Part shown: one piece after another, positions 1,881-16,117 of the stretch
Position numbering within the stretch: position 1 is the first letter of the stretch
Layout: each line of letters opens with the position of its first letter
NCBI GenBank assembly: GCA_026390345.1
Contig: JAPLGD010000072.1
Coordinates: 1,128 to 65,127, forward strand
Reading direction: 5' to 3'
From: Candidatus Bipolaricaulota bacterium
GTDB taxonomy: Bacteria; Bipolaricaulota; Bipolaricaulia; UBA7950; UBA9294
Length of the DNA: 64,000 bases
Made by a program: the position numbers and the translations under genes
Notes under the pieces: generated by a model
Told to the model about the DNA's origin: nothing
Seen by the model: only the letters and a program-made list of their open reading frames with translations
Database searches by the model: none

Positions 1881-2852
1881 ATGGCGTTTCACACCAAGAA
1901 GACGCGGTCGGACGACGAGACCGTGAAAGCACCGCCGAGCCGCAGCCTAACGCGTGACGCGATGCGTCGGCTGATGAAGAACCGCGGCGCCGTGGCCGGC
2001 GGGATCATCCTCCTTCTGCTCATTTTCGCGGCCATCTTTGCGGACTTCGTGGCTCCGTACAGCGCCACCGAGGGGGACATCCTCAACAACTACGCCGCGC
2101 CCACGGCGGCCCACCCCTTCGGGTGCGACTTCATGGGACGCGACGTGCTGTCCCGGCTGCTCTTCGGCGCCCGCATCTCCCTTGCGGCAGGGTTCGTGGG
2201 CGCGATCACCGCGTTCGCGATCGGCGTCACGTTCGGGCTTATCTCGGGGTTCTTCGGCGGGAAGACGGACAACTTCATGATGCGCATCGTCGACATCATG
2301 TACGGGTTCCCCACGCTGCTCCTGATCATCCTCCTGATGGTCTTCTTCAAGTCGAGCTTCTCCGTGTCGGGAGTCGCGGGCGCAGGGTTGCGCGGCGTTC
2401 TCTCGAACCTCGATCGGTCGATGGGCGGCATGTTCTTCATCTTCCTCGGGATCGGCCTCACGTCGTGGCTTGGCATGGCCCGGCTTGTCCGCGGCATGAC
2501 GCTCTCCGTGCGGAACACGGAGTACGTGGAGTCGGCGCGGGCGATCGGCACCTCGCGGACTCGGATTCTCTTCCGCCACATCCTCCCGAACGTCCTCGGG
2601 CCCGCCATCGTCGCCCAGGCGCTTCAGATTCCGGGCTTCATCCAGTACGAGGCCTTCCTGTCGTTCATCGGCCTCGGTGTAAACCCCCCCACGCCGAGCT
2701 GGGGCATGATGCTCTCTCAGGGATACCTGGCGATGCGGTCCCACTTCCACCTCGTTCTCTGGCCGGCGCTTGCCATCTCCATCACCCTGTTTGCCTTCAA
2801 CTTTCTGGGAGACGGAGTCCGCGACGCCTTCGATCCGCGGCAGACGAGGTAG
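1881..2852 (+). CDS. ABC transporter permease, DppC/OppC-like.
   Basis: 323 residues with an N-terminal cytoplasmic tail followed by transmembrane segments, the conserved SARAIGTSRTRILFRHILPN motif, and a C-terminal FNFLGDGVRDAFDPR. Confidence 0.85.
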   Translation: MAFHTKKTRSDDETVKAPPSRSLTRDAMRRLMKNRGAVAGGIILLLLIFAAIFADFVAPYSATEGDILNNYAAPTAAHPFGCDFMGRDVLSRLLFGARISLAAGFVGAITAFAIGVTFGLISGFFGGKTDNFMMRIVDIMYGFPTLLLIILLMVFFKSSFSVSGVAGAGLRGVLSNLDRSMGGMFFIFLGIGLTSWLGMARLVRGMTLSVRNTEYVESARAIGTSRTRILFRHILPNVLGPAIVAQALQIPGFIQYEAFLSFIGLGVNPPTPSWGMMLSQGYLAMRSHFHLVLWPALAISITLFAFNFLGDGVRDAFDPRQTR

Positions 2853-2923
2853 GCAGGCGAAGCGCTCTCGTCGGCTAGGCGGCCCGGTGCGACCTTGGCC
2901 GTGGGCGGCGTCCGGCAGCGCGA

Positions 2924-2952
2924 TTGACGGTTCGCAGCACCTGCGATAGAGT
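2924..2952 (+). promoter_or_regulatory. Sigma-70-like promoter TTGACG-17nt-TAGAGT, about 100 nt upstream of the 3056 operon.
   Basis: Hexamers read at 2924-2929 and 2947-2952 with a 17 nt spacer. This is the only lower-GC intergenic stretch before the coupled six-gene operon. Confidence 0.4.
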
Positions 2953-3055
2953 CGGGGTGCGGCCTTCCGGGGAGCGGTAGTCCGAGTGTCTGGAAGGTTC
3001 CCTCGTCCCCTAGCGGGCGCTCTCTCGGAAGTCCCTCGAAAGGGTCGGGATTCCG

Positions 3056-4759
3056 ATGACGGGACGGCGAAGGCTCAAGGGGTTTGCGGTCTTCTTGGCC
3101 CTCGCCGGGCTTCTCGCCGGTCACACCTCTGTCTGCCTCGCGTCCACCTTCGACGTCGTTGTGGGGCTTGCCGGCCGCGTCGTGCCGGAGCGGCTGGCGC
3201 CGATTCACTTGACGCTCACCGGCCTTCCGAGCGGCGCCGCCCGTCTGCGGGTGACTCAGAACGTCGGGAACGCGTGGCGGGGAGAGACGACGATGTCCTT
3301 CGAGATTCCCCTCGCCGAATCTGATCGCGGTGACTTCGAGGAGATCATCCCCATCTACGACGCCGCCCTTCCCCTCCGCCTCGAGCTTCTGTCTGCGGAC
3401 GAACGGCGCCTCGCGGAGAGAGAGGTCGACCTCCGCTCGCGGAGGGTGGACGCCCCCTTCCCAGTCGGGGTCGGAGCCTTCTCGGCCCCCCTCCCTGGTC
3501 AAGCCGCCTCCCTCTCCTCGGCGGAGCTGCCGAAGAAGTGGTCCGCGTACGACGCCGCGGAGAGCGTCTGGATCGGGCGCACGCGTGGGGGACTCGACGG
3601 CGACCAATGGGACGCCTTGGCACGCTGGGTGTTCTCCGGAGGCTCGCTCGTGGTCTTCACGGGCGCCGACTTCTTCCTCCTCGACGCGCCGCGACTGCGT
3701 GACCTCTTGCCCGTCGCGAATCCAACCCTCACCGAGCGGGGGGATGGAGTGCGGGTCCTGACGGGCGACCTCCGCAGCGGGGCGACGCTCCTCGCGACAA
3801 AGGAGAAGGTTCCCTGGCTGGTCGAGAGGCGCTACGGGGCTGGAAACGTTCTCCTCGTGACGGCGGATGCCTTCACGGTCGATGACGCGGAGCTCGCCGA
3901 GATCCGGAGCCACGTGTCCTCCGCGGGCGCGCTGCAACTCGCCGGGGCCGCCTCCGACCTCCTCGATCAGCAACCGATCGACCACCCCGGTCGATGGGTC
4001 GCCACCCTGTTGACCGTCCTGGCCGTCGTCGCCTTGCCGGCCGTGATCGGGCGGCTCGAAGGACGCAGGTCTGCGGCGCCAGCGCTTTGCGCCGTCTTCG
4101 CCGCCCTTGCTCTCTTCGCGGGGGTCTGCACGGATTCCGCACGGGTTGGAAGCGACCTATACCGGACGAACGCAAGCGTGTCGATCGAGGGCTCCCTCGG
4201 CGTGTCGGTATCGTGTTCCGCCCTGTGCTCGGCCGCACGACAGCCGGTGACGGTCCGTGTAGGTGTGGACGCTGTTCCCTACGAGCCTCTCCCGCGCAGC
4301 TTCGAGTCTGGATCGTACGACATGGCGTATCGCGACGGGGCGGCGCAGATCACGCTCGCACCGGGCGGACGTCGATTCCTCATCGCAGAGAGCGACGCAC
4401 CCGTGCGGCTCCGAGCGCGGCTTGCCGGCGATGAGGAGCTACGGCTGACCAGCCGAGGGTCCCGGATCCTCGCAGACGCGCTTCTCCTCCTCGACGGCGA
4501 GGTCTTCGTCTTGCCGCCGCTCGAACCCGGCGAAGTCACGATCTACCTCGCCAACCCTTCATCTGAGAGCACGCGGTCCTTGGGCCCTGAGGGCGGCTCG
4601 CTCGACCGCCTCCTTGCCGCTGCGGCAGACTCACTCCCGCTTCGCCGGGGAGCGTGGTTGGTGGCGGGGGAGATCACGGAGACGAAGCACGCAGAGAGCG
4701 GAGTCCGGACGCGCGTGAGAGACGTAAGCCTCTACGTCGTGGAGGTAGAGCGTGACTAG
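3056..4759 (+). CDS. Secreted/membrane-anchored hypothetical protein. It has a signal peptide, a soluble domain of about 300 residues, two transmembrane segments, and a C-terminal domain of about 200 residues. It is the first gene of the MoxR-VWA operon.
   Basis: Its N-terminus is MTGRRRLKGFAVFLALAGLLAGHTSVCLAS. It has a central hydrophobic pair (WVATLLTVLAVVALPAVIG, ALCAVFAALALFAGVC). Its stop overlaps the next start (GTGACTAG). I could recognise no catalytic motif. Confidence 0.6.
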   Translation: MTGRRRLKGFAVFLALAGLLAGHTSVCLASTFDVVVGLAGRVVPERLAPIHLTLTGLPSGAARLRVTQNVGNAWRGETTMSFEIPLAESDRGDFEEIIPIYDAALPLRLELLSADERRLAEREVDLRSRRVDAPFPVGVGAFSAPLPGQAASLSSAELPKKWSAYDAAESVWIGRTRGGLDGDQWDALARWVFSGGSLVVFTGADFFLLDAPRLRDLLPVANPTLTERGDGVRVLTGDLRSGATLLATKEKVPWLVERRYGAGNVLLVTADAFTVDDAELAEIRSHVSSAGALQLAGAASDLLDQQPIDHPGRWVATLLTVLAVVALPAVIGRLEGRRSAAPALCAVFAALALFAGVCTDSARVGSDLYRTNASVSIEGSLGVSVSCSALCSAARQPVTVRVGVDAVPYEPLPRSFESGSYDMAYRDGAAQITLAPGGRRFLIAESDAPVRLRARLAGDEELRLTSRGSRILADALLLLDGEVFVLPPLEPGEVTIYLANPSSESTRSLGPEGGSLDRLLAAAADSLPLRRGAWLVAGEITETKHAESGVRTRVRDVSLYVVEVERD

Positions 4760-5393
4760 ATCGTACCCATTGATGGACCGCGACGGCTGGCGCCCGTACT
4801 TCAGTCTCGTTCTCTTCTGCGGCATCGCTCTCACCCTCTCCATCCCGAGTGCCCGTGTCGTTCGGGATCTTGCGTCCGCCTCATTCCTGTCCGTCCTTCC
4901 GACCTTCTTCTACGCGCACGCTCTGTTCATGGGTCTCCTCGGATTGGCGCTCGGCACCGCGAGCGCCGGGCGGGGTGAGCAGGGAGGTCGGATGCTCGTG
5001 TCTCTCGCTCTCCGCGTCCTTCTGGGGCAATTCCTCTGCCTCCCGTACCTCGTCTTCGCCCGCGGCCTCTTCCCCGGCCGCGGGGAAACCTTCGCCCTCA
5101 TTGCGCTCTTCACGACGCTCGTTTCGCTCGCGCTGGCCGTGTTCGGTCGGTGGATCGAACAGCCGCGGCGGTCCGGACCCTCCTCCGGCTTCCTCGCGAA
5201 GTACGCTCTCTTTATTGGCTACTACGCCGCTCCTCTCGCGGGACTTCCGCTCCTGTCGCCCCTGGGAGCGGTGGGGCTCCTTCTCGAGGGCGTCGCACCT
5301 CTCGAGGCGCTCCTCGCGCTCCTCGTCCCCGCCGCCCTTCTCGGGGTCCTGTCTCCGTTCGCGGTCCGGCTGAAAGGGGAGGGTCATGTTTGA
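4752..5393 (+). CDS. Polytopic integral membrane protein, 213 residues, function unknown.
   Basis: GTG start preceded by GGAGG. Five to six hydrophobic helices. It is translationally coupled on both sides. Confidence 0.6.
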   Translation: MTRSYPLMDRDGWRPYFSLVLFCGIALTLSIPSARVVRDLASASFLSVLPTFFYAHALFMGLLGLALGTASAGRGEQGGRMLVSLALRVLLGQFLCLPYLVFARGLFPGRGETFALIALFTTLVSLALAVFGRWIEQPRRSGPSSGFLAKYALFIGYYAAPLAGLPLLSPLGAVGLLLEGVAPLEALLALLVPAALLGVLSPFAVRLKGEGHV

Positions 5394-6861
5394 CCTCGGC
5401 CGTCTGGAGAGACAGGCCGTGAGGCGTTCGAGGACCCTGCACGGTGTGCGGACCGCGGGCATCGCCTTCGCGGCGGCCGTCGCCGCCGTCCTGGTCGCGG
5501 CCGTGGCCGCCAGACTCGGGGCGTTCGCTCCTCGCCTCGACCTGTCCGTGGCGGCGGTCCTCTTCATCGCCGCCGCGGCCATCGCTGGGTTTGTTGTCGG
5601 ACACGCTCCCAGGCCGGACATCGCCCGCCTGCTTCTGTCGATCGATCTCGCCCTCGCTACGGGAGAGCGCCTTTGTTCCCTGCACGAACTTCGCTCGCGC
5701 AGCGGGGCGACTCCCCTCGAGAACCGGATCGCGGCTAGGCTTGCCGAAGCCCCGCCCGCGTGGCGCCGTGTCCTGCGGCTTCGCCGGGCCGATATTCTCC
5801 CGTGGGTAGCCGGCGGCGGCGCGCTGACTCTGGCCGTCCTCCTCGCCCTCACGATCGCGCCACCCGCTCCCACCGCGACGGTGGACTCAAGCCACGAGGT
5901 CCGCGTCTCGAGCGGCCGAAACGCGACCCAAGGATCCTCGAATCCCCTCGAGGCGAAGACCGGCGCCGCCGTTGCGAGCGACCGTGGCCTCAGTCCGAGC
6001 GAGCCCGCCGAGCCCTTCGCCGATACGCTCGCCGAACTCCTCTCGGCGCCTCCCTCGCAGGGGCTTCTCGGCGATCTCGGAGACGAGACGCCCACAGAAG
6101 CAAGCTCGCCCGCTCGGAATTCGCGCCGATCGCTCTCGGAATACCTCTCGCAGCTCCTGAGCCGGGCGCAGGCCGACCGCAACCAGACCTTCGCTTTGAC
6201 CGAGCATGAGAAGGAGTCCCTACAGGACCTTCTGCGGAACGTGCCCGGATCGAGTCTTCGCCAATCTCTGTCGTCGTTGCTCGGAGGCGAGACCGGGGAT
6301 GCCCTGAAGGCACGACTCGAGGAGTCCCAGCGGCTTCTCGAGAACTCAGCACGCGGCGACGAGGGTGAGGCGGGCTCGCAGGCCGGGAGGTCGCCGGGAA
6401 GCCCCGAGGGCGAGGCGAACGGGAGCAACCCCGAATCGATCGGCTGGGTTCCCCTTCCCCCCTCATCCGACGGTGAGACCGAGACCACCGAAGCGAGCGG
6501 ACGCCGGACGGGGGCGGACGCCGGGGAGCCCGAGACGCAGGGCGGGTCCGCTCTTCCACGCAACGAGGAGGGCGGGTCGGCCGTCGGAGCAGAAGGAACT
6601 GGACAGGCACCGGCTGCCCCTCCCGGCCTCGGGTTCGTTCCCGAGGAGCTCCTGGGGAGCGTGGGCTCCGAAGGAGACCTACGTCGGTACTTCACCAAAG
6701 GGACTCCGTTCGAGCCACCCGCCGAGAACCGCGCACCCGTCGCCACTCTTTCCCTCGACTACGAGGCCTTGCGTGCCCTGCTCGAAACACGCGCCCTCAC
6801 CCCCGAGGTCCAAACCATCGTCCGGGCCTACTTCGCCGAGATCACGCGGGGAGGACCATGA
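5386..6861 (+). CDS. Membrane protein with two N-terminal transmembrane helices, a Ser/Glu/Gly/Pro-rich disordered linker of about 250 residues, and a conserved C-terminal domain.
   Basis: ATG 5386 is preceded by GGGGAGGG. The hydrophobic N-terminus is IAFAAAVAAVLVAAVAA ... VAAVLFIAAAAIAGFVV. It has a low-complexity acidic middle and its stop overlaps the MoxR start (ATGA). Confidence 0.55.
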   Translation: MFDLGRLERQAVRRSRTLHGVRTAGIAFAAAVAAVLVAAVAARLGAFAPRLDLSVAAVLFIAAAAIAGFVVGHAPRPDIARLLLSIDLALATGERLCSLHELRSRSGATPLENRIAARLAEAPPAWRRVLRLRRADILPWVAGGGALTLAVLLALTIAPPAPTATVDSSHEVRVSSGRNATQGSSNPLEAKTGAAVASDRGLSPSEPAEPFADTLAELLSAPPSQGLLGDLGDETPTEASSPARNSRRSLSEYLSQLLSRAQADRNQTFALTEHEKESLQDLLRNVPGSSLRQSLSSLLGGETGDALKARLEESQRLLENSARGDEGEAGSQAGRSPGSPEGEANGSNPESIGWVPLPPSSDGETETTEASGRRTGADAGEPETQGGSALPRNEEGGSAVGAEGTGQAPAAPPGLGFVPEELLGSVGSEGDLRRYFTKGTPFEPPAENRAPVATLSLDYEALRALLETRALTPEVQTIVRAYFAEITRGGP

Positions 6862-7841
6862 TCACAGAGTATGACCTCGATCGGACGTACTCCACGCTGG
6901 AGCGCCTTCGCGGGGCGATCGGCACCGCCGTCGTCGGTCAAGGAGCCGTCGTCGAGGCCGCCCTCGTCGCGCTCCTGTGCGGCGGAAACGTCCTTCTGGA
7001 AGGCGTCCCCGGCCTGGGGAAAACTCTCCTTGTCCGCGCCCTGGCGAGCTCCCTCGGGCTTCGGTTCTCGCGCATCCAGTTCACCCCAGACCTTATGCCA
7101 GCCGACATCGTGGGCACGAACGTCCTCTCGGACGACGGCGGGCGGCGCCAGTTCACGTACTCTCCCGGCCCGATCTTCGCCAACATCGTTCTCGCCGACG
7201 AGGTGAACCGTGCGACTCCGAAGACCCAGTCGGCCCTGCTCGAGGCGATGGAAGAGCGGACGGTCACGGTCGGGAAGGCGACGTACCTTCTCGGAACCCC
7301 GTTCCTGGTCCTCGCCACGCAGAATCCGATCGAGATGGAGGGAACGTACCCTCTCCCCGAGGCGCAGCTGGACCGGTTCTTCTTCAAGGTGCCCGTCGGC
7401 TATCCCTCCCTAGAGGACCTGGTCGCCATCACCGAGCGCAACACCGAGGGCGGCGGGGTCGCTCTTCCGGAGCCCGTCGCGTCAGCCGACGATATCCTCT
7501 CCGCCCAAGCCGTCGTCCGTGAGGTCCCCATCGCCCAACCTCTACGGCAGTACGTGGCTCGGTTGGTCTTGGCGACCCATCCTGACAGCGGCCACGCCCC
7601 GAAGGACGTCCAGTCGTTTGTCGAGTATGGCGCGAGCCCTCGGGCAGCCATCGCGACGATTCTCGGCGCGAAGGCGCACGCCCTCCTCGCCGAAGAGCCG
7701 AACGTCCGTAGGGCTGACATCGAGGCCGTGTTTCCCCTAGCCCTCGTTCACCGCGTTATCCTCAGCTTCCGGGGGGAGGCTGAGGGCATCGGCGTGCCCG
7801 CGCTGCTTCGACGCGTGTGGGAGGAGACGTCGGTCCTATGA
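6858..7841 (+). CDS. MoxR-family AAA+ ATPase.
   Basis: Walker A GVPGLGKT, Walker B/sensor LADEVNRATPKTQSALLEAMEE, and the family-typical PIEMEGTYPLPEAQLDRF. 327 residues. Confidence 0.9.
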   Translation: MITEYDLDRTYSTLERLRGAIGTAVVGQGAVVEAALVALLCGGNVLLEGVPGLGKTLLVRALASSLGLRFSRIQFTPDLMPADIVGTNVLSDDGGRRQFTYSPGPIFANIVLADEVNRATPKTQSALLEAMEERTVTVGKATYLLGTPFLVLATQNPIEMEGTYPLPEAQLDRFFFKVPVGYPSLEDLVAITERNTEGGGVALPEPVASADDILSAQAVVREVPIAQPLRQYVARLVLATHPDSGHAPKDVQSFVEYGASPRAAIATILGAKAHALLAEEPNVRRADIEAVFPLALVHRVILSFRGEAEGIGVPALLRRVWEETSVL

Positions 7842-7911
7842 GAACCCCGTTCACCGACGAGGCTCGGCTCCCGGACCTCCGTGCGATTCGTAACGCGGGA
7901 GACGATCTCGC

Positions 7912-9702
7912 GTGATCCTCGCGAGCCCGACGTACCTTTCTCTCCTCGCCCTGACGATCGGCATCGTCCTTCTCTACTTCCTCAGCACGCGCCCCCGGCG
8001 GCACGAGGTCTCCGCCCTCTTCCTGTGGGAGGGGTTCCCGAGCGATCCGCGGACGCGAGCCGCGAGGGTTCGTGTTCGGATCGACGCCTCGCTCCTTCTG
8101 CAGATCCTTGTCCTCGCCGCAGCGGTCCTTGCCCTGGCCGATCCGGCATTCCCGACACGAGCGGCACGCCTGGGCGGTCTGGCCATCGTGCTGGATGGAA
8201 GCGCAAGCCTTCGCGCGATGAGCGCAGACGGGCGGTCGTCCGCCGATCGCTGTCGGTCGGAAGCGTTGGCCCTGCTCGACCGCTTCCCGACAACGCCGGT
8301 CGCCGTCTTCGAACTCACGGCCTCGCCCCGCCTCCTGGCGTCCCTCTCCGCAGACCACGAGCAAGCTCGGCGCGTCGTCGCGATGTGGGAACCCACGTGG
8401 TTCGCGAACGGCACCCGTCAGGACCTGATCGATTTGCTCGGCAGTCAGGGAGGAACGTACGAGCGGATCGTGTTTCTGACGGACGGAGCGCCTGCGGTCT
8501 CTCTTCCCGGTCTCGAGGTGGTCTCGTTCTCGCCCGGCGAGAACCTCGCGCTCACGGCCTTCAGCGTCCGCGAAAACCCGAGTGGATCGGGGTCGATGGG
8601 CTTCGCCCGCGTCCGCAACGACACCTCGTCCGACTACGAAGGCACGCTTCGTGTCAGCGACGGCGCGCGACGAGCCTCGGTTTCCGTCTTCCTCGCGCCC
8701 GGCGAGGAGCAGGTCTTCGTCCTTCCTTTCCCGGCGTCCGTCGGACCGCTGTTCACGGCCACGATCGACGCCGCCGATGCGTTCCCCGCCGACGACTCTC
8801 GCGTGGCAAGTCTCGCCCGTCAGACAGAGTGGCGGATCCGGATCGTGGGCGACGTCGATCGCTACCTGCGGGCCGCCTTGGCCTCGGTCGGCACCGTGCG
8901 CTTTCTCGGGGCGAGCGACCCCACTTCGGCCGACCTCACCGTGGCCTGCGATGTCTCGCTCCCGGAAGACACGCCTGGAAGCATCCTCCTCGTCCACAGC
9001 TCTCTTCCTGGGATCGCCGAAGTCGGCGACGATCGCGACGGGGAGCCAGGGCCGCTCTTCGCCGACGCCCCCGGGGACCCTCTCCTCGCCAGCGTCGATC
9101 CCCTGGACTTCGTCGTCCGCCGCGCCCCCGTGACTCGGCTCCTCGTGGCCGGCGTCACCCTCCTCTCGGCAGGTGGGGAGCCGGTCCTCTGGCGCGCCGA
9201 CCTCCCGGATCGACGCATCGTCGTCCTCGCACCCGATCCGATCCGGACGAACCTGCCGCTTTGCGTCGACTTTCCCATCCTCGTCTGGAACATCATCCAC
9301 TGGCTCTCCCTCGCGAATCCCTCCGCCCCTTCCTCGGCGCCGGTCGCCGGTGAGCCGATCCCGTTCTCTCCCTACGGGACCCCCGAGCGTCTCGAGGATC
9401 CGTCCGATCACGAGATCCCGGTGGACGCCGACACCGTCGGCTTCGTCGCGAGGGCCCCCGGGGTCTACCGACTCACAACGTCGACGGGAACCTACGCCGT
9501 CGCCGTGAACGTGGACTGGAACGAGTCGCCTCGCCCCTCCACCTCGAGCACCGCAGCGCCGGCGCCCGCCGACGGGGCGCGGGCTCGGCTGGATTCCACG
9601 TTCTTCTTCGCGTGGCCGATCGCCGCGGCCCTCGCGCTGGCCTTCCTCGTCCTCGAGTGCGTCGTCTACCAGCGGCCCGGTCTCCCGCGGAGGCGAGCGT
9701 GA
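7912..9702 (+). CDS. BatA-like protein with an N-terminal double-transmembrane domain and a VWA-like domain carrying a putative MIDAS motif (DGSAS).
   Basis: GTG start. N-terminus MILASPTYLSLLALTIGIVLLYFLSTRPRR...ALFLWEGF matches the aerotolerance-regulator N-terminal pattern, followed by LAIVLDGSASL. Confidence 0.7.
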   Translation: MILASPTYLSLLALTIGIVLLYFLSTRPRRHEVSALFLWEGFPSDPRTRAARVRVRIDASLLLQILVLAAAVLALADPAFPTRAARLGGLAIVLDGSASLRAMSADGRSSADRCRSEALALLDRFPTTPVAVFELTASPRLLASLSADHEQARRVVAMWEPTWFANGTRQDLIDLLGSQGGTYERIVFLTDGAPAVSLPGLEVVSFSPGENLALTAFSVRENPSGSGSMGFARVRNDTSSDYEGTLRVSDGARRASVSVFLAPGEEQVFVLPFPASVGPLFTATIDAADAFPADDSRVASLARQTEWRIRIVGDVDRYLRAALASVGTVRFLGASDPTSADLTVACDVSLPEDTPGSILLVHSSLPGIAEVGDDRDGEPGPLFADAPGDPLLASVDPLDFVVRRAPVTRLLVAGVTLLSAGGEPVLWRADLPDRRIVVLAPDPIRTNLPLCVDFPILVWNIIHWLSLANPSAPSSAPVAGEPIPFSPYGTPERLEDPSDHEIPVDADTVGFVARAPGVYRLTTSTGTYAVAVNVDWNESPRPSTSSTAAPAPADGARARLDSTFFFAWPIAAALALAFLVLECVVYQRPGLPRRRA

Positions 9703-12218
9703 TCCGTTTTGCGACGCCGCTCGCCCTTCTGGCGCTCCTCGCACTCGGGTTCCTCGTCGTCGGCGGCCGCAAGCGTCTGCGCGACGTCGCCCTTCCCGCC
9801 CTCGCCGCACTGGCCTTGATTGTGGCCCTGGCAGGCCCCGAGCTGCGCCGCGGCCTGCCCCCGGAGAACGTCATCGTCCTCCTCGATCGCTCTCCGAGCG
9901 TCGTGGCCACTCTCGAAGACGACGAGGTTCAGGATGCCGTGGCCGGCCTCCGCGCCGTGAATCCTGACAGACGGTTCGGGGCGGTCGCTTTCGCCTCTCG
10001 GGCGACGATCACCGATCCCCTCTCCGAGAATCCGAGTCCGCTCTCCGGGCTGCCGGAGGGCGCAAGCCTCGGGGCGCGAACCGACGTCGCGGCGGCCGTA
10101 AACCTTGCCCTCGCGGCGTCGCCCACAGGAGGTGCGAACCAGCTTGTGCTCGCCAGCGACGGCCGGATCACGGACGGTCTCCTTGAGGCCGTCACCGCGG
10201 CTCGTGCCGCGGGTGTGCCGATCTCCACACTTCCCCTCGGCCACACCGCAACGGCCGACACCTCCTTCACCCGCCTCGAGGTTCCCTCCCGAGTGCAGGT
10301 CGCGCGGCCGTTTCAGATCGTCGCGGGCGTCGAGTCTCCGTCGCCCGGAGAGGGAACGCTCCTCCTCTATCGCGACGGGGAGCTCGTCTCATCCACTCCT
10401 GTGTCCTTGAACAGCGGACTCTCCCGGTTTCGGATCGTCGACACGCTCACGGAAACCGGCACCCACACGTACCGCGTCGCGGTCAAGCGCTTGGGCGACC
10501 CGATCCCGGAGAATGACTCTCTCTCGGCCTTCGCGGAGAGCGAGACCCCTCCTCCCCTACTCATCGTCTCGCCCGAGGTTCCCAACACCCTCGCCGCCGT
10601 GCTCGCGGGGGCGCAGCGACCCTACGCGCTAAGCGCCGTCGTCCCCCCGCTCGAGGAGCTCGCCCACTACCGCGAGATCCTGATCACGGGTTTCCCCCTG
10701 GGCGAGCTCTCTCCTGGCGACATCCAGATTCTCCGATCCTTCGTCGCCGACCTCGGCGGAGGTCTCCTCGTCGCCGAGGGTGAAGCGGAGCTCCGCGGGG
10801 TGCGAAGCGGTGGGATCGAGGATCTTCTCCCCGTCTCGTACACGCTTCCTCAGCGAGCGGACCAGGCGAGTCTCGCCGTCGTCTACCTCCTCGACCGCTC
10901 GGCGAGCATGCTCGGGCACGCCGAAGGAGCTGCGAAAATCGACGTTGTGAAGGAGGCCGCGGCCGCCTGCGTCGGCCTCCTCGACCCGCAGGCCCTCGCC
11001 GGGATCATCGCGTTCGATCGGGAGTTCCGCTGGCTGCGACGCGTCGCCCCCGTCCTGGATGGCCGCGAGATCTACGAGTCGCTCCGGACTCTCGAAGCGA
11101 GCGGAGGAACCGACATCTACTACCCGACGGTCGCGGCTCTCGACGCCCTCGAACAGGTCTCGGCGCGAATCAAGCACATCCTTCTTCTCTCCGACGGGAA
11201 GACGGTCGACGAGGCTCGCGACTGGGGCGGACTCTTCGCTCGCTTGGAGGCCCAGTCCGACGTCCGCCTCTCCGCCATCGCCGTCGGCCCTCAGCCGAAC
11301 CTGTCGCTCCTCGACCGCCTGGCAAAGGCCGGTCGAGGAGAGCTCTACGTGGCGGCCGACTTCTCTCTCCTCCCGAAAGTATCGATGGAGGCCACCCAAC
11401 GCTTGTCGGAGAGCCGCTTCGTGACCGAGGAGACTTCCGTGTCTGGACCGCTCGTAGGCGGGGATCTGGGCGAGATCCCCCCACTCCAAGGACGCGCGCT
11501 GACGTACTCGCGGCCGACGGCCGAGGTCCTCCTCGCAGCAGGAACGGACCCGATCCTGGCTCGATGGCGACTCGGCCTGGGTAGGGCCGCCGTCCTGAAC
11601 ACCGATCTCGCAGGGATCTGGTCGCGCGACTGGCTCTCCTGGAGCCGTGCGCCTCTGCTTCTCGAAGCCCTCCTGGGGTGTGTGGAAGCCGGAACTTGGG
11701 TCGACCAGGGTCTTCAACCGTCCGTGGAGGTCGGGGAGTTCGGCATTCGCGTGTCCGTCGAGGCGCGGGAATCGGATGGGAGCTTCGCCGACTTCCTGCG
11801 CCTCGAGGCCGCTCTGCTCCCCGGCGGCACGGCCGCTCCGCTCGCACAGACGAGCGCCGGCCGATACGAGACGACGCTCCCCACACTCGCGGAGGGAGGG
11901 TACGCCCTCCGAGTGGTCGATCAGACACGAGGCCGAGTCGTCCTCCTCCCCTTCTCGGTTCCCTACCCGGAGGAGTACCGACACACGGGCGTCGACAAGG
12001 CAACCCTCCGAACGATCGCCCAGGCCACCGGCGGCCGGTTCCTCGTGGGAGAGCAGGTTCTCCCCGAGTCGCCTAGCGCACTAGCCCAATCCTTCGTTCC
12101 CGTCCACCGCCAAGTCCTGCTCCTTGCCCTCGCTCTCTTTCTTCTCGAACTCGTTCGGCGGAAGCTGCCTCGTCGACTTGCGAAGCCGGCGCCGCGGACG
12201 GGCCGCTCCGCTTCTTGA
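9699..12218 (+). CDS. Tandem VWA-domain protein with a BatA-like double-transmembrane N-terminus and a C-terminal transmembrane anchor.
   Basis: GTG start overlaps the upstream stop (GTGA). N-terminus IRFATPLALLALLALGFLVVGGRKR. Two MIDAS-type motifs (VLLDRSPSV and VYLLDRSASM). The C-terminus has LLLALALFLLELVRRKLPRR. Confidence 0.75.
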   Translation: MIRFATPLALLALLALGFLVVGGRKRLRDVALPALAALALIVALAGPELRRGLPPENVIVLLDRSPSVVATLEDDEVQDAVAGLRAVNPDRRFGAVAFASRATITDPLSENPSPLSGLPEGASLGARTDVAAAVNLALAASPTGGANQLVLASDGRITDGLLEAVTAARAAGVPISTLPLGHTATADTSFTRLEVPSRVQVARPFQIVAGVESPSPGEGTLLLYRDGELVSSTPVSLNSGLSRFRIVDTLTETGTHTYRVAVKRLGDPIPENDSLSAFAESETPPPLLIVSPEVPNTLAAVLAGAQRPYALSAVVPPLEELAHYREILITGFPLGELSPGDIQILRSFVADLGGGLLVAEGEAELRGVRSGGIEDLLPVSYTLPQRADQASLAVVYLLDRSASMLGHAEGAAKIDVVKEAAAACVGLLDPQALAGIIAFDREFRWLRRVAPVLDGREIYESLRTLEASGGTDIYYPTVAALDALEQVSARIKHILLLSDGKTVDEARDWGGLFARLEAQSDVRLSAIAVGPQPNLSLLDRLAKAGRGELYVAADFSLLPKVSMEATQRLSESRFVTEETSVSGPLVGGDLGEIPPLQGRALTYSRPTAEVLLAAGTDPILARWRLGLGRAAVLNTDLAGIWSRDWLSWSRAPLLLEALLGCVEAGTWVDQGLQPSVEVGEFGIRVSVEARESDGSFADFLRLEAALLPGGTAAPLAQTSAGRYETTLPTLAEGGYALRVVDQTRGRVVLLPFSVPYPEEYRHTGVDKATLRTIAQATGGRFLVGEQVLPESPSALAQSFVPVHRQVLLLALALFLLELVRRKLPRRLAKPAPRTGRSAS

Positions 12219-12301
12219 GGGACTCGCGATTCCGAAGTGCGGCCATCGGGCGCGTCGTCTGGCAAAAAAGCAGAACCCAAGTGCGGTGCAGTGCGGTCCA
12301 C

Positions 12302-12330
12302 TTGATTCAGTATCACCACAACTCTACACT
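12302..12330 (+). promoter_or_regulatory. Promoter TTGATT-17nt-TACACT for the second peptide ABC operon.
   Basis: Read at 12302-12307 and 12325-12330 in a locally AT-richer intergenic region. The -10 context TACACTGC is shared with the promoter at 21920. Confidence 0.4.
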
Positions 12331-12433
12331 GCTGTCGAAGTTCCCTCTCGATTGCCATCCCACGGAAGGGGAGGTGACGTTCGCGTTTGGCTTCTCTGGT
12401 AGAGCGGAAGGAACATCTCTAAGGGAGGTTCAG

Positions 12434-14035
12434 ATGGGAAGAAAGGGAAACTGGCTAGTACTTGGGCTCGTGGTGTCCCTGGTCATCGGCATGGCTTCCG
12501 TGGGGTTCGGAGCGACGGACAAGTTGATCTATCTGTTCTACGGCGAGCCTGGTGAGGCTGACCCTGCTACAGCGTACGACATGCGCTCGTCGACACTGAT
12601 CAACAACGTCTATGACCGTCTCCTGACGTACGAAGGGAGCGATGCAACGAAGTTCGCGCCGATGTTGGCCGAGCGCTGGGAAGTGTCGGCCGACGGAAAG
12701 ACGGTCACGTTCCACCTCCGGAAGAACGCGACGTTCCACGACGGCTCGCCCCTGACGGCGGAGGATGTGCGCTACTCGTTCAACCGCGTTCTGACGATGA
12801 ACCAACCGCCGTCCTGGATGCTGTCGCAGATGATGAACCAGGATAGCACCGTGGTCGTTGACCCGTACACCATCGAGGTCCACTTGACGCAGGCGTACGC
12901 CGCTGCCCTGGGCGTGCTGACGCACACCGTCGCGTCGATCGTCAACTCGGCGGTCGTCGAGGCGAACGGCGGCATCGTCGCCGATCAGGAAAACACCTGG
13001 ATGAACCAGAACGAGGGCGGCGCCGGATCTGGACCGTACACGCTGAAGGAATGGATCCCGGCCGAGAGACTCACGTTCGAACGGTATGACGGCTACTGGG
13101 GCGCGAAGGCGCTGACGAAGACGATCGAGTGCCCCATCGTCCCTGAGGTCGGAACTCGCGTCCTCATGCTGCGGGCAGGGGATGCCGACGTCCACGACCA
13201 GTTCCCGGAGACGAACGTCGCTGACCTCGAAGGCGCTCCGAACCTGACGATCCTTACTCCGGCCACGTTCAACATCGACTTCATTGCGTTGGGTTGCCGC
13301 GGCCCGATGGCTGAGAAGGCCGTCCGCCAAGCGGTGTCCTACGCGTTCCCGTACGCCATGGCGCTTGAGTTCGTCTACAACGGACTCGCGATCCGATCCA
13401 CCGGCCCGATTCCGTCGGGGATGTTCGGCTACGTCGACCCTGCGGCCGACGGACGGTACGAGTACAACATCGTCAAGGCGAACCAGCTCCTGGACGCGGC
13501 CGGCTGGACTTGGGTTGCCGGTCAGGGCTACCGTGTGAAGGCCGGCGTAGAGCTTGGAATGGAGGTCTTGGCGCCGATCGGCGAGGAAGTCAAGATGCAG
13601 GAAGCCCTGCTCTGGCAGGACAGCCTCCGGCAGATCGGCTTTAACCTGAAGATCCGAGAGATCGTGTACGCCATGATGTACAGGACCGTCCGCAACCACG
13701 ACACGGACGGCATCATGTCGGGCTGGCTACCGGACTACGCGGACCCGGACAACTACGTTGACGCCATCTGCAACTCAGGAAACGCCAACGCCATCTACGG
13801 GAACCAGTACAACAACCCGGCAATGGATGCCCTGATCTTGCAGGCGAAGTCCGAAATCGACGTGGCGAAGCGTGCCGGCCTGTATCGGCAGATCCAGGAG
13901 ATCTCGTTCCAGGATGCGCCGTACATCTGGGTCTCCCAGCGGTCGAACGTTGTCATCCTCAACAACGCCGTGAAGGGCTTCTACTACAACCCGATCCTTC
14001 CGATCGACTTCGCGACGCTGTACAAGGAAGGCTAG
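12434..14035 (+). CDS. ABC transporter substrate-binding protein, family 5 (peptide), with a Sec signal peptide.
   Basis: RBS AAGGGAGG then ATG 12434. Signal MGRKGNWLVLGLVVSLVIGMASVGFGATD. Family-5 motifs (GSGPYTLKEW, GWLPDYADPDNY). Confidence 0.85.
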   Translation: MGRKGNWLVLGLVVSLVIGMASVGFGATDKLIYLFYGEPGEADPATAYDMRSSTLINNVYDRLLTYEGSDATKFAPMLAERWEVSADGKTVTFHLRKNATFHDGSPLTAEDVRYSFNRVLTMNQPPSWMLSQMMNQDSTVVVDPYTIEVHLTQAYAAALGVLTHTVASIVNSAVVEANGGIVADQENTWMNQNEGGAGSGPYTLKEWIPAERLTFERYDGYWGAKALTKTIECPIVPEVGTRVLMLRAGDADVHDQFPETNVADLEGAPNLTILTPATFNIDFIALGCRGPMAEKAVRQAVSYAFPYAMALEFVYNGLAIRSTGPIPSGMFGYVDPAADGRYEYNIVKANQLLDAAGWTWVAGQGYRVKAGVELGMEVLAPIGEEVKMQEALLWQDSLRQIGFNLKIREIVYAMMYRTVRNHDTDGIMSGWLPDYADPDNYVDAICNSGNANAIYGNQYNNPAMDALILQAKSEIDVAKRAGLYRQIQEISFQDAPYIWVSQRSNVVILNNAVKGFYYNPILPIDFATLYKEG

Positions 14036-14059
14036 GCAAGAAGGGATTTGGACCAACAC

Positions 14060-14084
14060 GGGGCCGGAGTCTCACTCCGGCCCC
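14060..14084 (+). promoter_or_regulatory. Intercistronic stem-loop (10 bp stem ggggccggag/ctccggcccc, loop tctca) followed by tcctttgattcc. It is likely a partial terminator or mRNA stabiliser between the binding-protein and permease genes.
   Basis: Read directly from the sequence. It is positioned like the hairpins at 888 and 35903. Confidence 0.5.
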
Positions 14085-14141
14085 TCCTTTGATTCCACAA
14101 CCGCGGGGCGACCTCGTCCTTCCGCGGAATGAGGAGAAGAC

Positions 14142-15161
14142 ATGAGGCTCAGCACCTACATCCTGCGCCGCGTCGCGATGCTGATTCCTGTCCTGCTCGG
14201 CGTGCTGGTGATCATCTTCGTAATCGCGTACGTCATTCCGGCGGATCCGGCGCGAGCCTGGGCCGGGCCGCGGGCGCGAGCGGAGCAGGTTCAGGTGCTT
14301 GAGGAGCGTTACCACCTGAACGACCCGATCTACACCCAGATCTGGATCTACCTGAAGAACGTGGTTCTCCACTTCGACCTCGGGGTCTCTCCGACGACCG
14401 GGCGCCCGGTGCGAGACGATCTCAAGGCCTTCTTCCCGGCAACCTTTGAGCTGGCGATGTGCGCCTTCTTCCTAGCGATCGCCTTAGGAATTCCCTTGGG
14501 CGTCGTCTCCGCTCTGCGGAGGAATCGCCCGACGGACCACTTCTCCCGCGTCATCGCGCTGACCGGAGTCTCGACGCCGTTGTTTTGGTCGGCGCTCCTG
14601 CTGCAGTTCCTGTTCTACTACAAGCTGGGCTGGCTCCCGGCGATGGGGCGATCGACGATCGACATCACGCGCTACACCGGCTTCGTCCTCATCGACAGCG
14701 TTCTCAACTGGAACTGGACGGCGTTCGGCGATGCGGCGATCCACATGATCCTCCCGGCCGCGACGTTGGCGTTCTACTCGATGGGGTACCTGGTCCGCAT
14801 CACACGCGGCAGCATGCTCGAGGTTCTCGAGGCGGAGTACGTGATCACGGCGAAGGCCAAGGGACTTCCGCGTAAGATCGTCATCTACCGGCACGCGCTG
14901 AAGAACGCAATCATCCCGCCGCTGACCGTGCTCGGTGTCGAATTCGGCTGGTTGCTGGGCGGAACGGTTCTGCTTGAGACGATCTTCGCCTGGCCGGGAA
15001 TGGGGCGGTACGCGGCAGGGTCGATTGTCATGGTCGATCTCCCAGCCGTGGTCGGCTACACGCTGGTCGTCGCCATGATCATGCTCTTGTCGAACCTGGT
15101 CGTCGACATTCTCTACAGCGTCATCGATCCGCGGATCCGTGTGGGAGGGAAGCGCAGATGA
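14142..15161 (+). CDS. ABC transporter permease, DppB-like.
   Basis: 339 residues. Transmembrane pattern and conserved AKAKGLPRKIVIYRHALKNA loop. Confidence 0.85.
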   Translation: MRLSTYILRRVAMLIPVLLGVLVIIFVIAYVIPADPARAWAGPRARAEQVQVLEERYHLNDPIYTQIWIYLKNVVLHFDLGVSPTTGRPVRDDLKAFFPATFELAMCAFFLAIALGIPLGVVSALRRNRPTDHFSRVIALTGVSTPLFWSALLLQFLFYYKLGWLPAMGRSTIDITRYTGFVLIDSVLNWNWTAFGDAAIHMILPAATLAFYSMGYLVRITRGSMLEVLEAEYVITAKAKGLPRKIVIYRHALKNAIIPPLTVLGVEFGWLLGGTVLLETIFAWPGMGRYAAGSIVMVDLPAVVGYTLVVAMIMLLSNLVVDILYSVIDPRIRVGGKRR

Positions 15162-16117
15162 GAATCCCTGGAAGCATGCTCTTCTCGTCCCGCTATCGGC
15201 TGCTCCAGAAACGCCTCCATCCGATCACCAAGGAATGGGGTCTGACCTTCTACGTGCTTCGGCACAGCACGTTGGCCGTCGTCGGAGGGCTCATCGCCCT
15301 TGCATTCATCTTCATCGCCCTCTTCGGAGCCATGCTCGCTCCGTACAATCCGATCAGCGCCAACATCCAGGACCGATTTCAGCCGCCTTCGGCGTCGCAC
15401 CCGCTGGGCACCGACACGATGGGGCGCGACGTCATGAGCCGCATGCTGGCCGGGGCACAGCACAGCATCAAGGCGGGGCTGATCGTTCTCGCGATCGCTG
15501 TTCCCCTCGGCGTTCTCCTCGGGGGGATTGCCGGCTTGTTCGGCGGGTGGATCGATGAGGTCATCATGCGGGTCACCGACATGTTCCTCGCGTTCCCCTC
15601 GCTGGTCCTGGCGATGGCCTTTTCGGCCGCTCTCGGGCCGTCTCTGTTCAACGCGATGATCGCCCTGTCAATCGTCTGGTGGCCGATGTACGCTCGCCTC
15701 GTCCGCGGGCAGGCGCTGGCGGTCAGGGAAACGAGCTACGTCGAAGCCGCCCGGTCGCGGGGAGCCAGCAACTGGCACATCATGTTCAAGCACATCCTGC
15801 CGAACTGCCTGTCGCCGATTCTCGTGACGTTGACGCTCGACATGGGATGGGTCATCACCGCCGCCGCGTCGCTGAGCTTCCTGGGGTTCGGCGCCCAGCC
15901 TCCAATCCCCGAGTGGGGTCGGATGGTCAGCGACGGCCGAATCTACATGCTGCGCGCGTGGTGGATGTCTGTGTTCCCCGGGCTCGGCATCGTGCTCGTG
16001 GTGCTGGGGTTCAACCTTCTGGGGGACGGGATCCGTGACTCGTTAGACCCGAAGCTTCGAAGACTGACGGAGGTGACATGGAAACCCGAGAAGACCTCCT
16101 CGTCGTCGACAGACTGA
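15158..16117 (+). CDS. ABC transporter permease, DppC-like.
   Basis: ATGA overlap with the upstream gene. 319 residues. ARSRGASNWHIMFKHILPN motif. Confidence 0.85.
   Translation: MRIPGSMLFSSRYRLLQKRLHPITKEWGLTFYVLRHSTLAVVGGLIALAFIFIALFGAMLAPYNPISANIQDRFQPPSASHPLGTDTMGRDVMSRMLAGAQHSIKAGLIVLAIAVPLGVLLGGIAGLFGGWIDEVIMRVTDMFLAFPSLVLAMAFSAALGPSLFNAMIALSIVWWPMYARLVRGQALAVRETSYVEAARSRGASNWHIMFKHILPNCLSPILVTLTLDMGWVITAAASLSFLGFGAQPPIPEWGRMVSDGRIYMLRAWWMSVFPGLGIVLVVLGFNLLGDGIRDSLDPKLRRLTEVTWKPEKTSSSSTD

Follow-up and report, generated by a model that had tools for sequence, protein, structure and literature searches.

A Bipolaricaulota MoxR-BatA-VWA operon that has probably lost its DUF58 gene and kept the other six genes in use

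Can a MoxR ATPase of the MRP type work with its membrane partners when the DUF58 gene that usually accompanies it is missing? The question is raised by a locus from a Candidatus Bipolaricaulota bacterium (assembly GCA_026390345.1, contig JAPLGD010000072.1), from which we analyzed a stretch of 64,000 nucleotides (nt), positions 1,128 to 65,127 of the contig, referred to here as the window. Six co-oriented, intact open reading frames (ORFs) fill window positions 3056-12218 on the plus strand, as determined by ORF calling. They encode three membrane proteins, which we call P1, P2 and P3, a MoxR AAA+ ATPase, a BatA-type VWA protein (P5), and a protein with two VWA domains (P6). MRP operons normally carry DUF58, VWA, and often TPR genes (the scheme of Snider and Houry, as quoted in PMC11834572 and PMC12067865); in the neighborhood of this moxR gene, VWA genes are present, and both DUF58 and TPR genes are missing. 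The original prediction, made from the letters of this stretch, had suggested a distinct envelope-associated chaperone and VWA module. Our comparison with related loci leads to a different answer, which we hold with fairly good confidence: the locus is a Bipolaricaulota version of the MRP-type MoxR-DUF58-BatA-VWA operon from which DUF58 was deleted, and its remaining six genes appear to be still in use.

The comparison took in 13 loci from genomes and 28 from metagenomes, together with several contigs obtained through exact protein look-up, and the six window proteins and one DUF58 protein were mapped onto all of them (individual loci are denoted by L and a number). Every related locus with enough flanking sequence has the order P1, P2, P3, MoxR, BatA, double VWA, with or without a gene after moxR. 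In 24 related loci a DUF58 gene (Pfam match, 287-292 residues) is located exactly between moxR and batA, and it abuts or overlaps both of these genes. The protein it encodes lacks a transmembrane (TM) segment and contains a DxSxS motif. The MoxR of the window is 58-82% identical to the MoxR of the sister-lineage clusters. The best 120 of 1653 DUF58 matches are about 292-300 residues long and 55-95% identical to the query; apparently these are orthologues. The ancestral operon consisted of seven co-oriented and mostly overlapping genes, which encoded P1, P2, P3, MoxR, a soluble DUF58 protein of 292 residues, the BatA-type VWA protein, and the double-VWA protein.

Neither DUF58 nor a TPR protein was recognizable in the operon according to the original prediction, and our searches agree. 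The Pfam profile for DUF58 (PF01882) had no match at E <= 1 in the six proteins, so that none of the three proteins encoded upstream of moxR scores as DUF58. When a lineage-specific DUF58 hidden Markov model (HMM) was searched against the six-frame translation of the 64-kb window, the best match had E = 1.6, and a tblastn search of the window with the DUF58 protein returned nothing. TPR, SH3, and BatD domains had no match in any of the six proteins, nor among the called genes of the related loci. At the exact position of the 879-nt DUF58 gene of the relatives, the window has a spacer of 70 nt (7842-7911, plus strand), which keeps a GGGAG ribosome-binding site for the P5 gene. The claim that all six genes are chained by overlaps holds in part: the overlaps are found at the junctions GTGACTAG, the 8-nt overlap ATGTTTGA, ATGA, and GTGA, in this order along the operon, whereas moxR and batA are separated by the 70-nt gap.

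The spacer is also 70 nt long in L001. It measures 115 nt in the other loci of the window's own DUF58-less group (clade A, described below) and 61 nt in L010 and L048. The clade A spacers are homologous to one another. The first approximately 25 nt of the spacers in the window and in L006 resemble codons 2-9 of DUF58 genes (z between 1 and 4.7 relative to internal gene positions, with values for the window of up to 3.6). In gapped alignments with cheap gaps, the spacers matched whole DUF58 genes no better than shuffled sequences did. The idea that the start of the spacer is a remnant of the DUF58 gene is suggestive only.

In bootstrapped phylogenies, the window groups with L001, L005 (located on the same contig as L023), L006, L008, L013, and L046. 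This group, clade A, lacks DUF58 throughout; it was recovered with 100% bootstrap support in the concatenation and with 91-100% support per gene, and it is nested among DUF58-bearing lineages. A second group without DUF58, clade B (L010 and L048), is placed apart from clade A. The two clades grouped together in 0 of 100 bootstrap replicates for the six-gene concatenation, and in at most 30 of 100 for any single gene; when only P1 and P2 were combined in a tree, from a smaller set of sequences, the joint grouping reached 76%. Two independent losses of DUF58, one in each clade, are therefore favored by these trees, not proven. Because the state without DUF58 is confined to a nested clade, it is best described as a secondary deletion and not as a separate class of system. 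Judging from the compared sequences, the gap is real: out of a conserved module of seven genes, one was deleted in this particular lineage.

Several points weigh against a deletion followed by continued function. The resemblance of the spacers to DUF58 codons is weak, and it is not significant in L005, L008, L013, and L010. The trees were calculated by neighbor-joining only, and the single-gene trees for P1 and P2 give 17-30% support for one loss. Two loci that belong to clade A have lost most of the module (see below), and the module may be on its way out in this clade. All functional statements are inferred, and the organisms are uncultured; the role of DUF58 is stated to be unknown in PMC12067865, and the adaptor role that we propose for it below is an analogy. 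Finally, the search for DUF58 covers 64 kb of the genome, and a copy elsewhere is possible.

If such a copy exists, DUF58 might be supplied in trans, by another MoxR-DUF58 pair or by a stand-alone gene, and the system would work as it does in the relatives. We regard this as possible, though unlikely. DUF58 is a very large family, as the 1653 matches among the scored candidates illustrate, the window represents only 64 kb of the genome, and the purifying selection on all six genes (see below) would fit an unchanged mechanism. Against it, the window contains no DUF58, and a search of its 64 kb for paralogues of the six genes, a second MoxR or VWA gene among them, found none. No second DUF58 class was seen among the named Bipolaricaulota proteins, in a search that had little power here. 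In the relatives, the DUF58 of the module shows tight conservation, with translational coupling to the genes on either side; this suggests a dedicated partner and argues against supply in trans.

The loss of DUF58 could also have been the first step of reductive evolution, in which case the operon would be decaying and the rest of it would no longer function as a MoxR system. Some loci do show losses. L044 and L045 belong to clade A according to the P1 tree. In them, unrelated DNA of about 1.5 kb (L045 6349-7843) stands in place of the equivalent of window positions 5734-12297; moxR, batA, the double-VWA gene, and the second part of P3 are gone, and P1, P2, and the downstream gene for a peptide-binding protein are kept. 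In L028, which belongs to a DUF58-bearing group, a 75-residue ORF (7470-7697) joins the first 59 residues of MoxR, which reach to the Walker A region, to approximately the last 16 of BatA. The rest of MoxR, DUF58, and most of BatA are deleted there, and the two blocks of homology share about 33 nt; either a recombination event at a short repeat or a chimeric assembly could explain this. Where 22 DUF58-bearing sequences show at least 90% conservation, the MoxR of clade B (L010 5744-6724 and L048 540-1520) has approximately 25 substitutions, among them V50A beside Walker A, E129Q, and Y143I; these could reflect relaxed or altered constraint or a long branch. In clade A, MoxR has about four fixed changes (I25V, T35A/V, P294L, and N303S).

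The genes of clade A nevertheless do not look like genes in decay, and we consider this explanation improbable. None of the six ORFs is broken in any of seven independent clade A assemblies. Within clade A, the ratio of nonsynonymous to synonymous substitution rates (dN/dS) lies between 0.11 and 0.14 in MoxR, and between 0.17 and 0.37 in the remaining five genes; the overall range, 0.11-0.37, matches the values of a DUF58-bearing pair and is no higher than in DUF58-bearing loci. The catalytic motifs of MoxR are intact, and the hexamers of the putative promoter are invariant. By these sequence measures, the six remaining genes appear to be still in use and under purifying selection. We also compared the six proteins, with one clade B sequence, for compensatory or convergent substitutions after the loss of DUF58, and found no convincing signal; the sites changed in both clades are E116 and P202 in P3, and A71, I149, and L301 in P6.

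Two other related loci have unusual gene structures. L049 (LZCG01000185.1, 1440-11121) contains the full seven-gene module with every gene broken into several frames, for which a low-quality assembly is more likely than a pseudogenized operon. In L021, a distant seven-gene locus, a 104-residue nucleotidyltransferase (Polbeta/NTP_transf_2) and a 36-residue ORF are located between the P3-like gene and moxR (11560-11981); this looks like an insertion of the toxin-antitoxin type.

The original prediction of a distinct module that never used DUF58 is right about the composition of the locus, an envelope-associated set of MoxR and VWA proteins in which neither DUF58 nor TPR is recognizable in cis, and the upstream trio does stay below the family cut-offs. 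As a separate class, however, it is very improbable. The same module occurs together with DUF58 in the 24 related loci, among them members that are only about 20% identical in P3, and the loci without DUF58 are nested within those that have it. That the missing gene is an artefact of assembly or binning can be set aside almost entirely: the data are metagenome assemblies, and an apparent internal deletion in the DUF58 gene of L018 is a run of N and not a pseudogene, but the same junction, with homologous spacers (115 nt long, except for the 70 nt of the window and of L001), recurs in independent NCBI, JGI, and Logan assemblies, which rules such an error out.

The MoxR protein of the window (6858-7841, plus strand; 327 residues) is a predicted cytoplasmic AAA+ ATPase of the MRP type, with Pfam matches to AAA_3 (E = 1.9e-61) and AAA_lid_2 (E = 1.6e-14). 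Walker A (GVPGLGKT), Walker B (LADE), sensor 1 (ATQN), and the motifs DRF and GASPR are found at positions 49, 110, 153, 172, and 258, respectively; Walker A and B, sensor 1, the Arg finger, and sensor 2 are thus all preserved. Its best solved relative is the Cytophaga structure 2R44 (E = 3.5e-73). We considered the MoxR-vWA-beta-propeller conflict system and rejected it, as bpMoxR matched with E = 2e-9 compared to 2e-61 for AAA_3, and no beta-propeller gene is present. A known defense system was rejected as well; PADLOC returned only generic P-loop matches at E >= 1e-3. In the literature that we searched, we found no mention of MoxR together with Bipolaricaulota.

P5 (7912-9702, plus strand; 596 residues) consists of a BatA double-TM domain, a VWA domain with a DGSAS motif (MIDAS, for metal ion-dependent adhesion site), a further region predicted to be outside, and a C-terminal TM anchor. 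The match to BatA (PF07584) scored 40.9 bits with a cut-off of 25.9, while VWA_2 matched weakly (22.5 bits with a cut-off of 27, E = 2e-4); orthologues are on record with VWA_2. The TM segments are at residues 2-20, 57-75, and 563-581, and the DxSxS motif is at 95. The loop between the first two segments carries 8 lysine and arginine residues and the tail carries 4; since both are basic, the positive-inside rule places the VWA domain outside. Borrelia BB0173 has the same layout as P5, from the BatA double-TM domain through a VWA domain with a MIDAS to a TM segment at the C-terminus, and the VWA domain of BB0173 was mapped experimentally to the periplasm (PMC5700661).

P6 (9699-12218, plus strand; 839 residues counted from the GTG at 9699) has an N-terminal TM hairpin, two VWA domains, a C-terminal TM anchor, and a basic tail. 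The Pfam matches are two VWA_2 stretches, VWA_3, and VWA_CoxE, and the MIDAS motifs are DRSPS at 63 and DRSAS at 399. As with P5, the VWA domains are placed outside because loop and tail are basic. All three VWA domains of P5 and P6 carry DxSxS MIDAS motifs. In its N-terminal half, P6 shows homology to P5 (hhalign 93%, residues 55-363 of P5 against 24-347 of P6). In contrast to the VWA domains of P5 and P6, the domains of P1, and most of P3, which are predicted to face outwards, MoxR and DUF58 would be cytoplasmic.

P1 (3056-4759, plus strand; 567 residues) begins with an N-terminal signal or anchor, followed by a beta-sandwich predicted to be outside, a GATase1-like domain, a TM hairpin (314-332 and 340-358 by hydropathy), and a beta-rich C-terminal domain predicted to be outside. 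An AlphaFold2 (AF2) model of P1 has a predicted local distance difference test (pLDDT) score of about 85 over residues 30-300. In a Foldseek search of the PDB, this model matched GATase1-like/GIFT folds, namely STM3548 (2gk3), STM1381 (3soz), and the N-domain of IFT52 (5fms), with E between 1e-4 and 2e-3. P1 matched DUF4350 (PF14258) with 23.1 bits (E = 1e-4), below the Pfam cut-off of 30.4, and three distant P1 orthologues gave sub-threshold matches of 16.5-17 bits (E = 0.007-0.011) to the same region of the profile. At best, P1 is a remote relative of the exported DUF4350 proteins, to which a TM hairpin and further beta-sandwich domains are added. The P1 sequence is 100% identical to that of a hypothetical protein from a Candidatus Bipolaricaulota metagenome-assembled genome, encoded on a 67-kb contig.

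P2 (4752-5393, plus strand; 213 residues) is a polytopic membrane protein with approximately five TM segments according to hydropathy. In all related loci its gene is flanked by those for P1 and P3, and its dN/dS is 0.18-0.30. P2 and its distant orthologues had no match in Pfam or in NCBIfam.

P3 (5386-6861, plus strand; 491 residues) is a three-TM protein with acidic disordered linkers, as judged from alignments, an AF2 model, and charge counts. Its N-terminal unit comprises a TM hairpin (24-42 and 53-71), a conserved three-helix domain at about 72-136 that is predicted to be cytoplasmic, and a third TM segment (137-155). Beyond this segment, a disordered acidic linker leads to a region of four helices (242-326), and another linker of this kind leads on to a conserved C-terminal motif at about 430-491. 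The pLDDT is above 90 in residues 1-160 and 242-326, and below 50 in the linkers. No Pfam match was found among 32 members of the P3 family, and the best PDB fold match had E = 1.9; sequence-profile searches of the PDB with the P1 and P3 families gave no match. A profile search of 1.84 billion representatives assigned 165 representative clusters to the P3 family at E <= 1e-3. In the genome collection, all P3 relatives are from Bipolaricaulota metagenome-assembled genomes (MAGs), a few of which carry the label Thermotogota given by their submitters. Three distant P3 relatives, with about 20% identity, are located behind P1-like and P2-like genes in the same order. Two of these three loci extend downstream to MoxR, DUF58, BatA, and double-VWA genes; the contig of the third stops inside the gene after P3.

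The topologies that had been proposed from the sequence, a P1 with a signal peptide and two TM segments, a polytopic P2, a membrane-bound P3 with an acidic linker, a BatA-like P5, and a tandem-VWA P6, agree with the hydropathy and Pfam results. The statement that the three upstream proteins have no assignable domains needs to be modified for P1, given its remote DUF4350 and GATase1-like matches; otherwise it stands, as no Pfam family scored above its curated cut-off and a search of NCBIfam with the three proteins added nothing. DUF4129, SpoIIM (DUF95), and RDD had no match at E <= 1 in the window proteins or the distant P2 orthologues, and none at E <= 0.01 in the 32 members of the P3 family. 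In hhalign comparisons, no relationship was detected between P1 and P5, P1 and P6, P3 and P1, or P2 and P3. The order P1-P2-P3 is kept in every related locus with enough flank, and these proteins are real, conserved, and uncharacterized components of one seven-gene module.

In the mechanism that we propose, P1, P2, P3, P5, and P6 would form a complex in the cytoplasmic membrane with their large domains directed outward. The outward parts would include the three MIDAS-bearing VWA domains, the GATase1-like domain, and the acidic ectodomain of P3. A cytoplasmic MoxR hexamer would assemble or remodel this complex using ATP. In the relatives that have DUF58, this soluble VWA-like protein with its DxSxS motif may be the adaptor that attaches to the ring of MoxR in the cytoplasm, following the model of NorD/NorQ and ViaA/RavA; in MoxR-VWA docking, a VWA protein from the same compartment plugs the pore of the ATPase ring (PMC9976466). 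In clade A, MoxR would either bind directly to those parts of the membrane proteins that face the cytoplasm, or rely on a DUF58 protein from another place in the genome. For direct binding, the candidates are the conserved P3 domain (72-136) and the basic loop of BatA (21-56). The P3 domain is the best-conserved cytoplasmic face, and the P3 gene is located immediately upstream of moxR, which it overlaps by ATGA.

One could go further and propose that P1-P3 are an obligatory and hitherto undescribed membrane sub-complex in a subclass of MRP-type MoxR systems, that DUF58 is a dispensable adaptor, as the two probably independent deletions with purifying selection persisting on the other genes would then show, and that MoxR is coupled directly, most plausibly via the three-helix domain of P3. 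We consider this extended proposal rather doubtful. One lead that would fit a direct coupling of MoxR to P3 is residue E116 of P3, which is at least 90% conserved in the DUF58-bearing loci and replaced in both lineages that lack DUF58. Regarding the putative target of the machine, we favor the building or maintenance of an envelope structure over the insertion of a cofactor into a cytoplasmic enzyme, because of the analogy with the Rhizobium RL3499 operon and the Bat operons.

The closest known kind of system is the MRP-subfamily MoxR-DUF58-BatA-VWA ("Bat-like") operon. The Bat operons of Bacteroidota and spirochaetes (MoxR, DUF58, BatA, BatB, and the TPR/SH3 proteins BatC-E), which have been tied to stress tolerance (PMC11834572), share with the window an MRP-type MoxR, a BatA-VWA protein, and a second VWA membrane protein. 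They also share with the ancestral form of the present module a DUF58 gene directly after moxR. The differences are that TPR, SH3, and BatD are lacking here, that moxR is the fourth gene and not the first, that P1-P3 are added before MoxR, that the second VWA protein has two VWA domains, and that DUF58 is absent in the window.

The original prediction was to fail if one of the upstream proteins scored as DUF58 and the cluster matched a widespread actinobacterial arrangement in which DUF4350 and DUF4129 proteins precede MoxR and DUF58. None of the upstream proteins scores as DUF58; the likeness to the actinobacterial arrangement holds in part, through the remote DUF4350-like P1 and the MoxR-DUF58 pair of the ancestral cluster. 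The mycobacterial cluster Rv3689-Rv3695 encodes a membrane protein, DUF4350 (Rv3691), MoxR2 (Rv3692), DUF58 (Rv3693), a SpoIIM-like protein (Rv3694c), and an RDD protein (Rv3695) (table in PMC8191103). In both clusters, further membrane proteins and an exported protein, of the DUF4350 type in mycobacteria and at best remotely like it in the case of P1, precede moxR, which is followed by DUF58 in the ancestral form of the present module. However, P1 remains under the DUF4350 cut-off and has the additional beta-sandwich domains and TM hairpin, P2 and P3 match none of SpoIIM/DUF95, RDD, and DUF4129, and the actinobacterial cluster lacks the BatA and double-VWA pair. A DUF4129 protein is also present in the actinobacterial cluster.

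The MRP MoxR operon RL3499-RL3502 of Rhizobium leguminosarum is needed for membrane integrity and cell morphology (PMC3893208). Like the present one, it is an MRP MoxR operon linked to the cell envelope and not to a metalloenzyme, and a functional analogy is plausible. We know of no relatives of P1-P3 in this operon. NorQ/NorD, RavA/ViaA, and CbbQ/CbbO also combine a MoxR hexamer with a VWA/MIDAS partner, and they serve as the template for the MoxR-DUF58 step proposed above. These systems belong to other MoxR subfamilies, and their VWA partner is soluble and in the compartment of MoxR, whereas the only VWA domains of the window operon are predicted to lie outside the membrane.

The six genes follow a promoter-like site, TTGACG-17 nt-TAGAGT (2924-2952, plus strand). 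The assertion that it is the single sigma-70-like promoter was confirmed insofar as it is the sole plus-strand match in 2600-12600, where shuffled sequences contained 0.2 such sites on average. Both hexamers are invariant across six clade A loci, in which the upstream region as a whole is 80% identical. The leader of about 100 nt between this site and the start of P1 (2958-3055) is highly conserved in clade A, and CGCTCTCTCGGAAGTCCCTCGAAAGGGTCGGGATTCCG in it is nearly invariant. A search for a conserved RNA element in this leader gave no Rfam match, and its fold was no more stable than those of shuffled sequences (z = 0.37).

In clade A the module is wedged between genes for peptide/oligopeptide ABC transporters (920-2852 and about 12440-16117 in the window). 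In the clade of the window, the upstream flank encodes OppC-type permeases, and the downstream flank encodes an SBP_bac_5 binding protein and permeases. The flanks of L002 are different, with IS-type transposase genes upstream and mscL downstream; the position of the module is thus not fixed. An alternative ORF of 490 residues (7881-9353), which overlaps the P5/BatA gene in another frame, is rich in arginine and proline and typical of spurious ORFs at approximately 68% GC. Since conservation follows the frame of P5 in all loci, we treated this ORF as an artefact of the high GC content.

MRP MoxR operons with DUF58 and BatA/VWA genes occur in many phyla and affect stress tolerance, envelope integrity, and virulence, while their substrate and the role of DUF58 are unknown (PMC12067865, PMC11834572). 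With uncultured organisms and inferred functions, the practical value of the present finding is modest. The conserved seven-gene form adds three membrane components that are outside all family libraries to the parts list of MRP-type MoxR systems. Moreover, the loci without DUF58 amount to a natural knock-out of this gene, which probably occurred twice, and in which the ATPase and the membrane proteins were kept under selection. Should these genomes truly lack DUF58, a cytoplasmic MoxR would operate there without a VWA partner in the same compartment; this would contradict the current rule of MoxR-VWA pairing and point to a different route of coupling.

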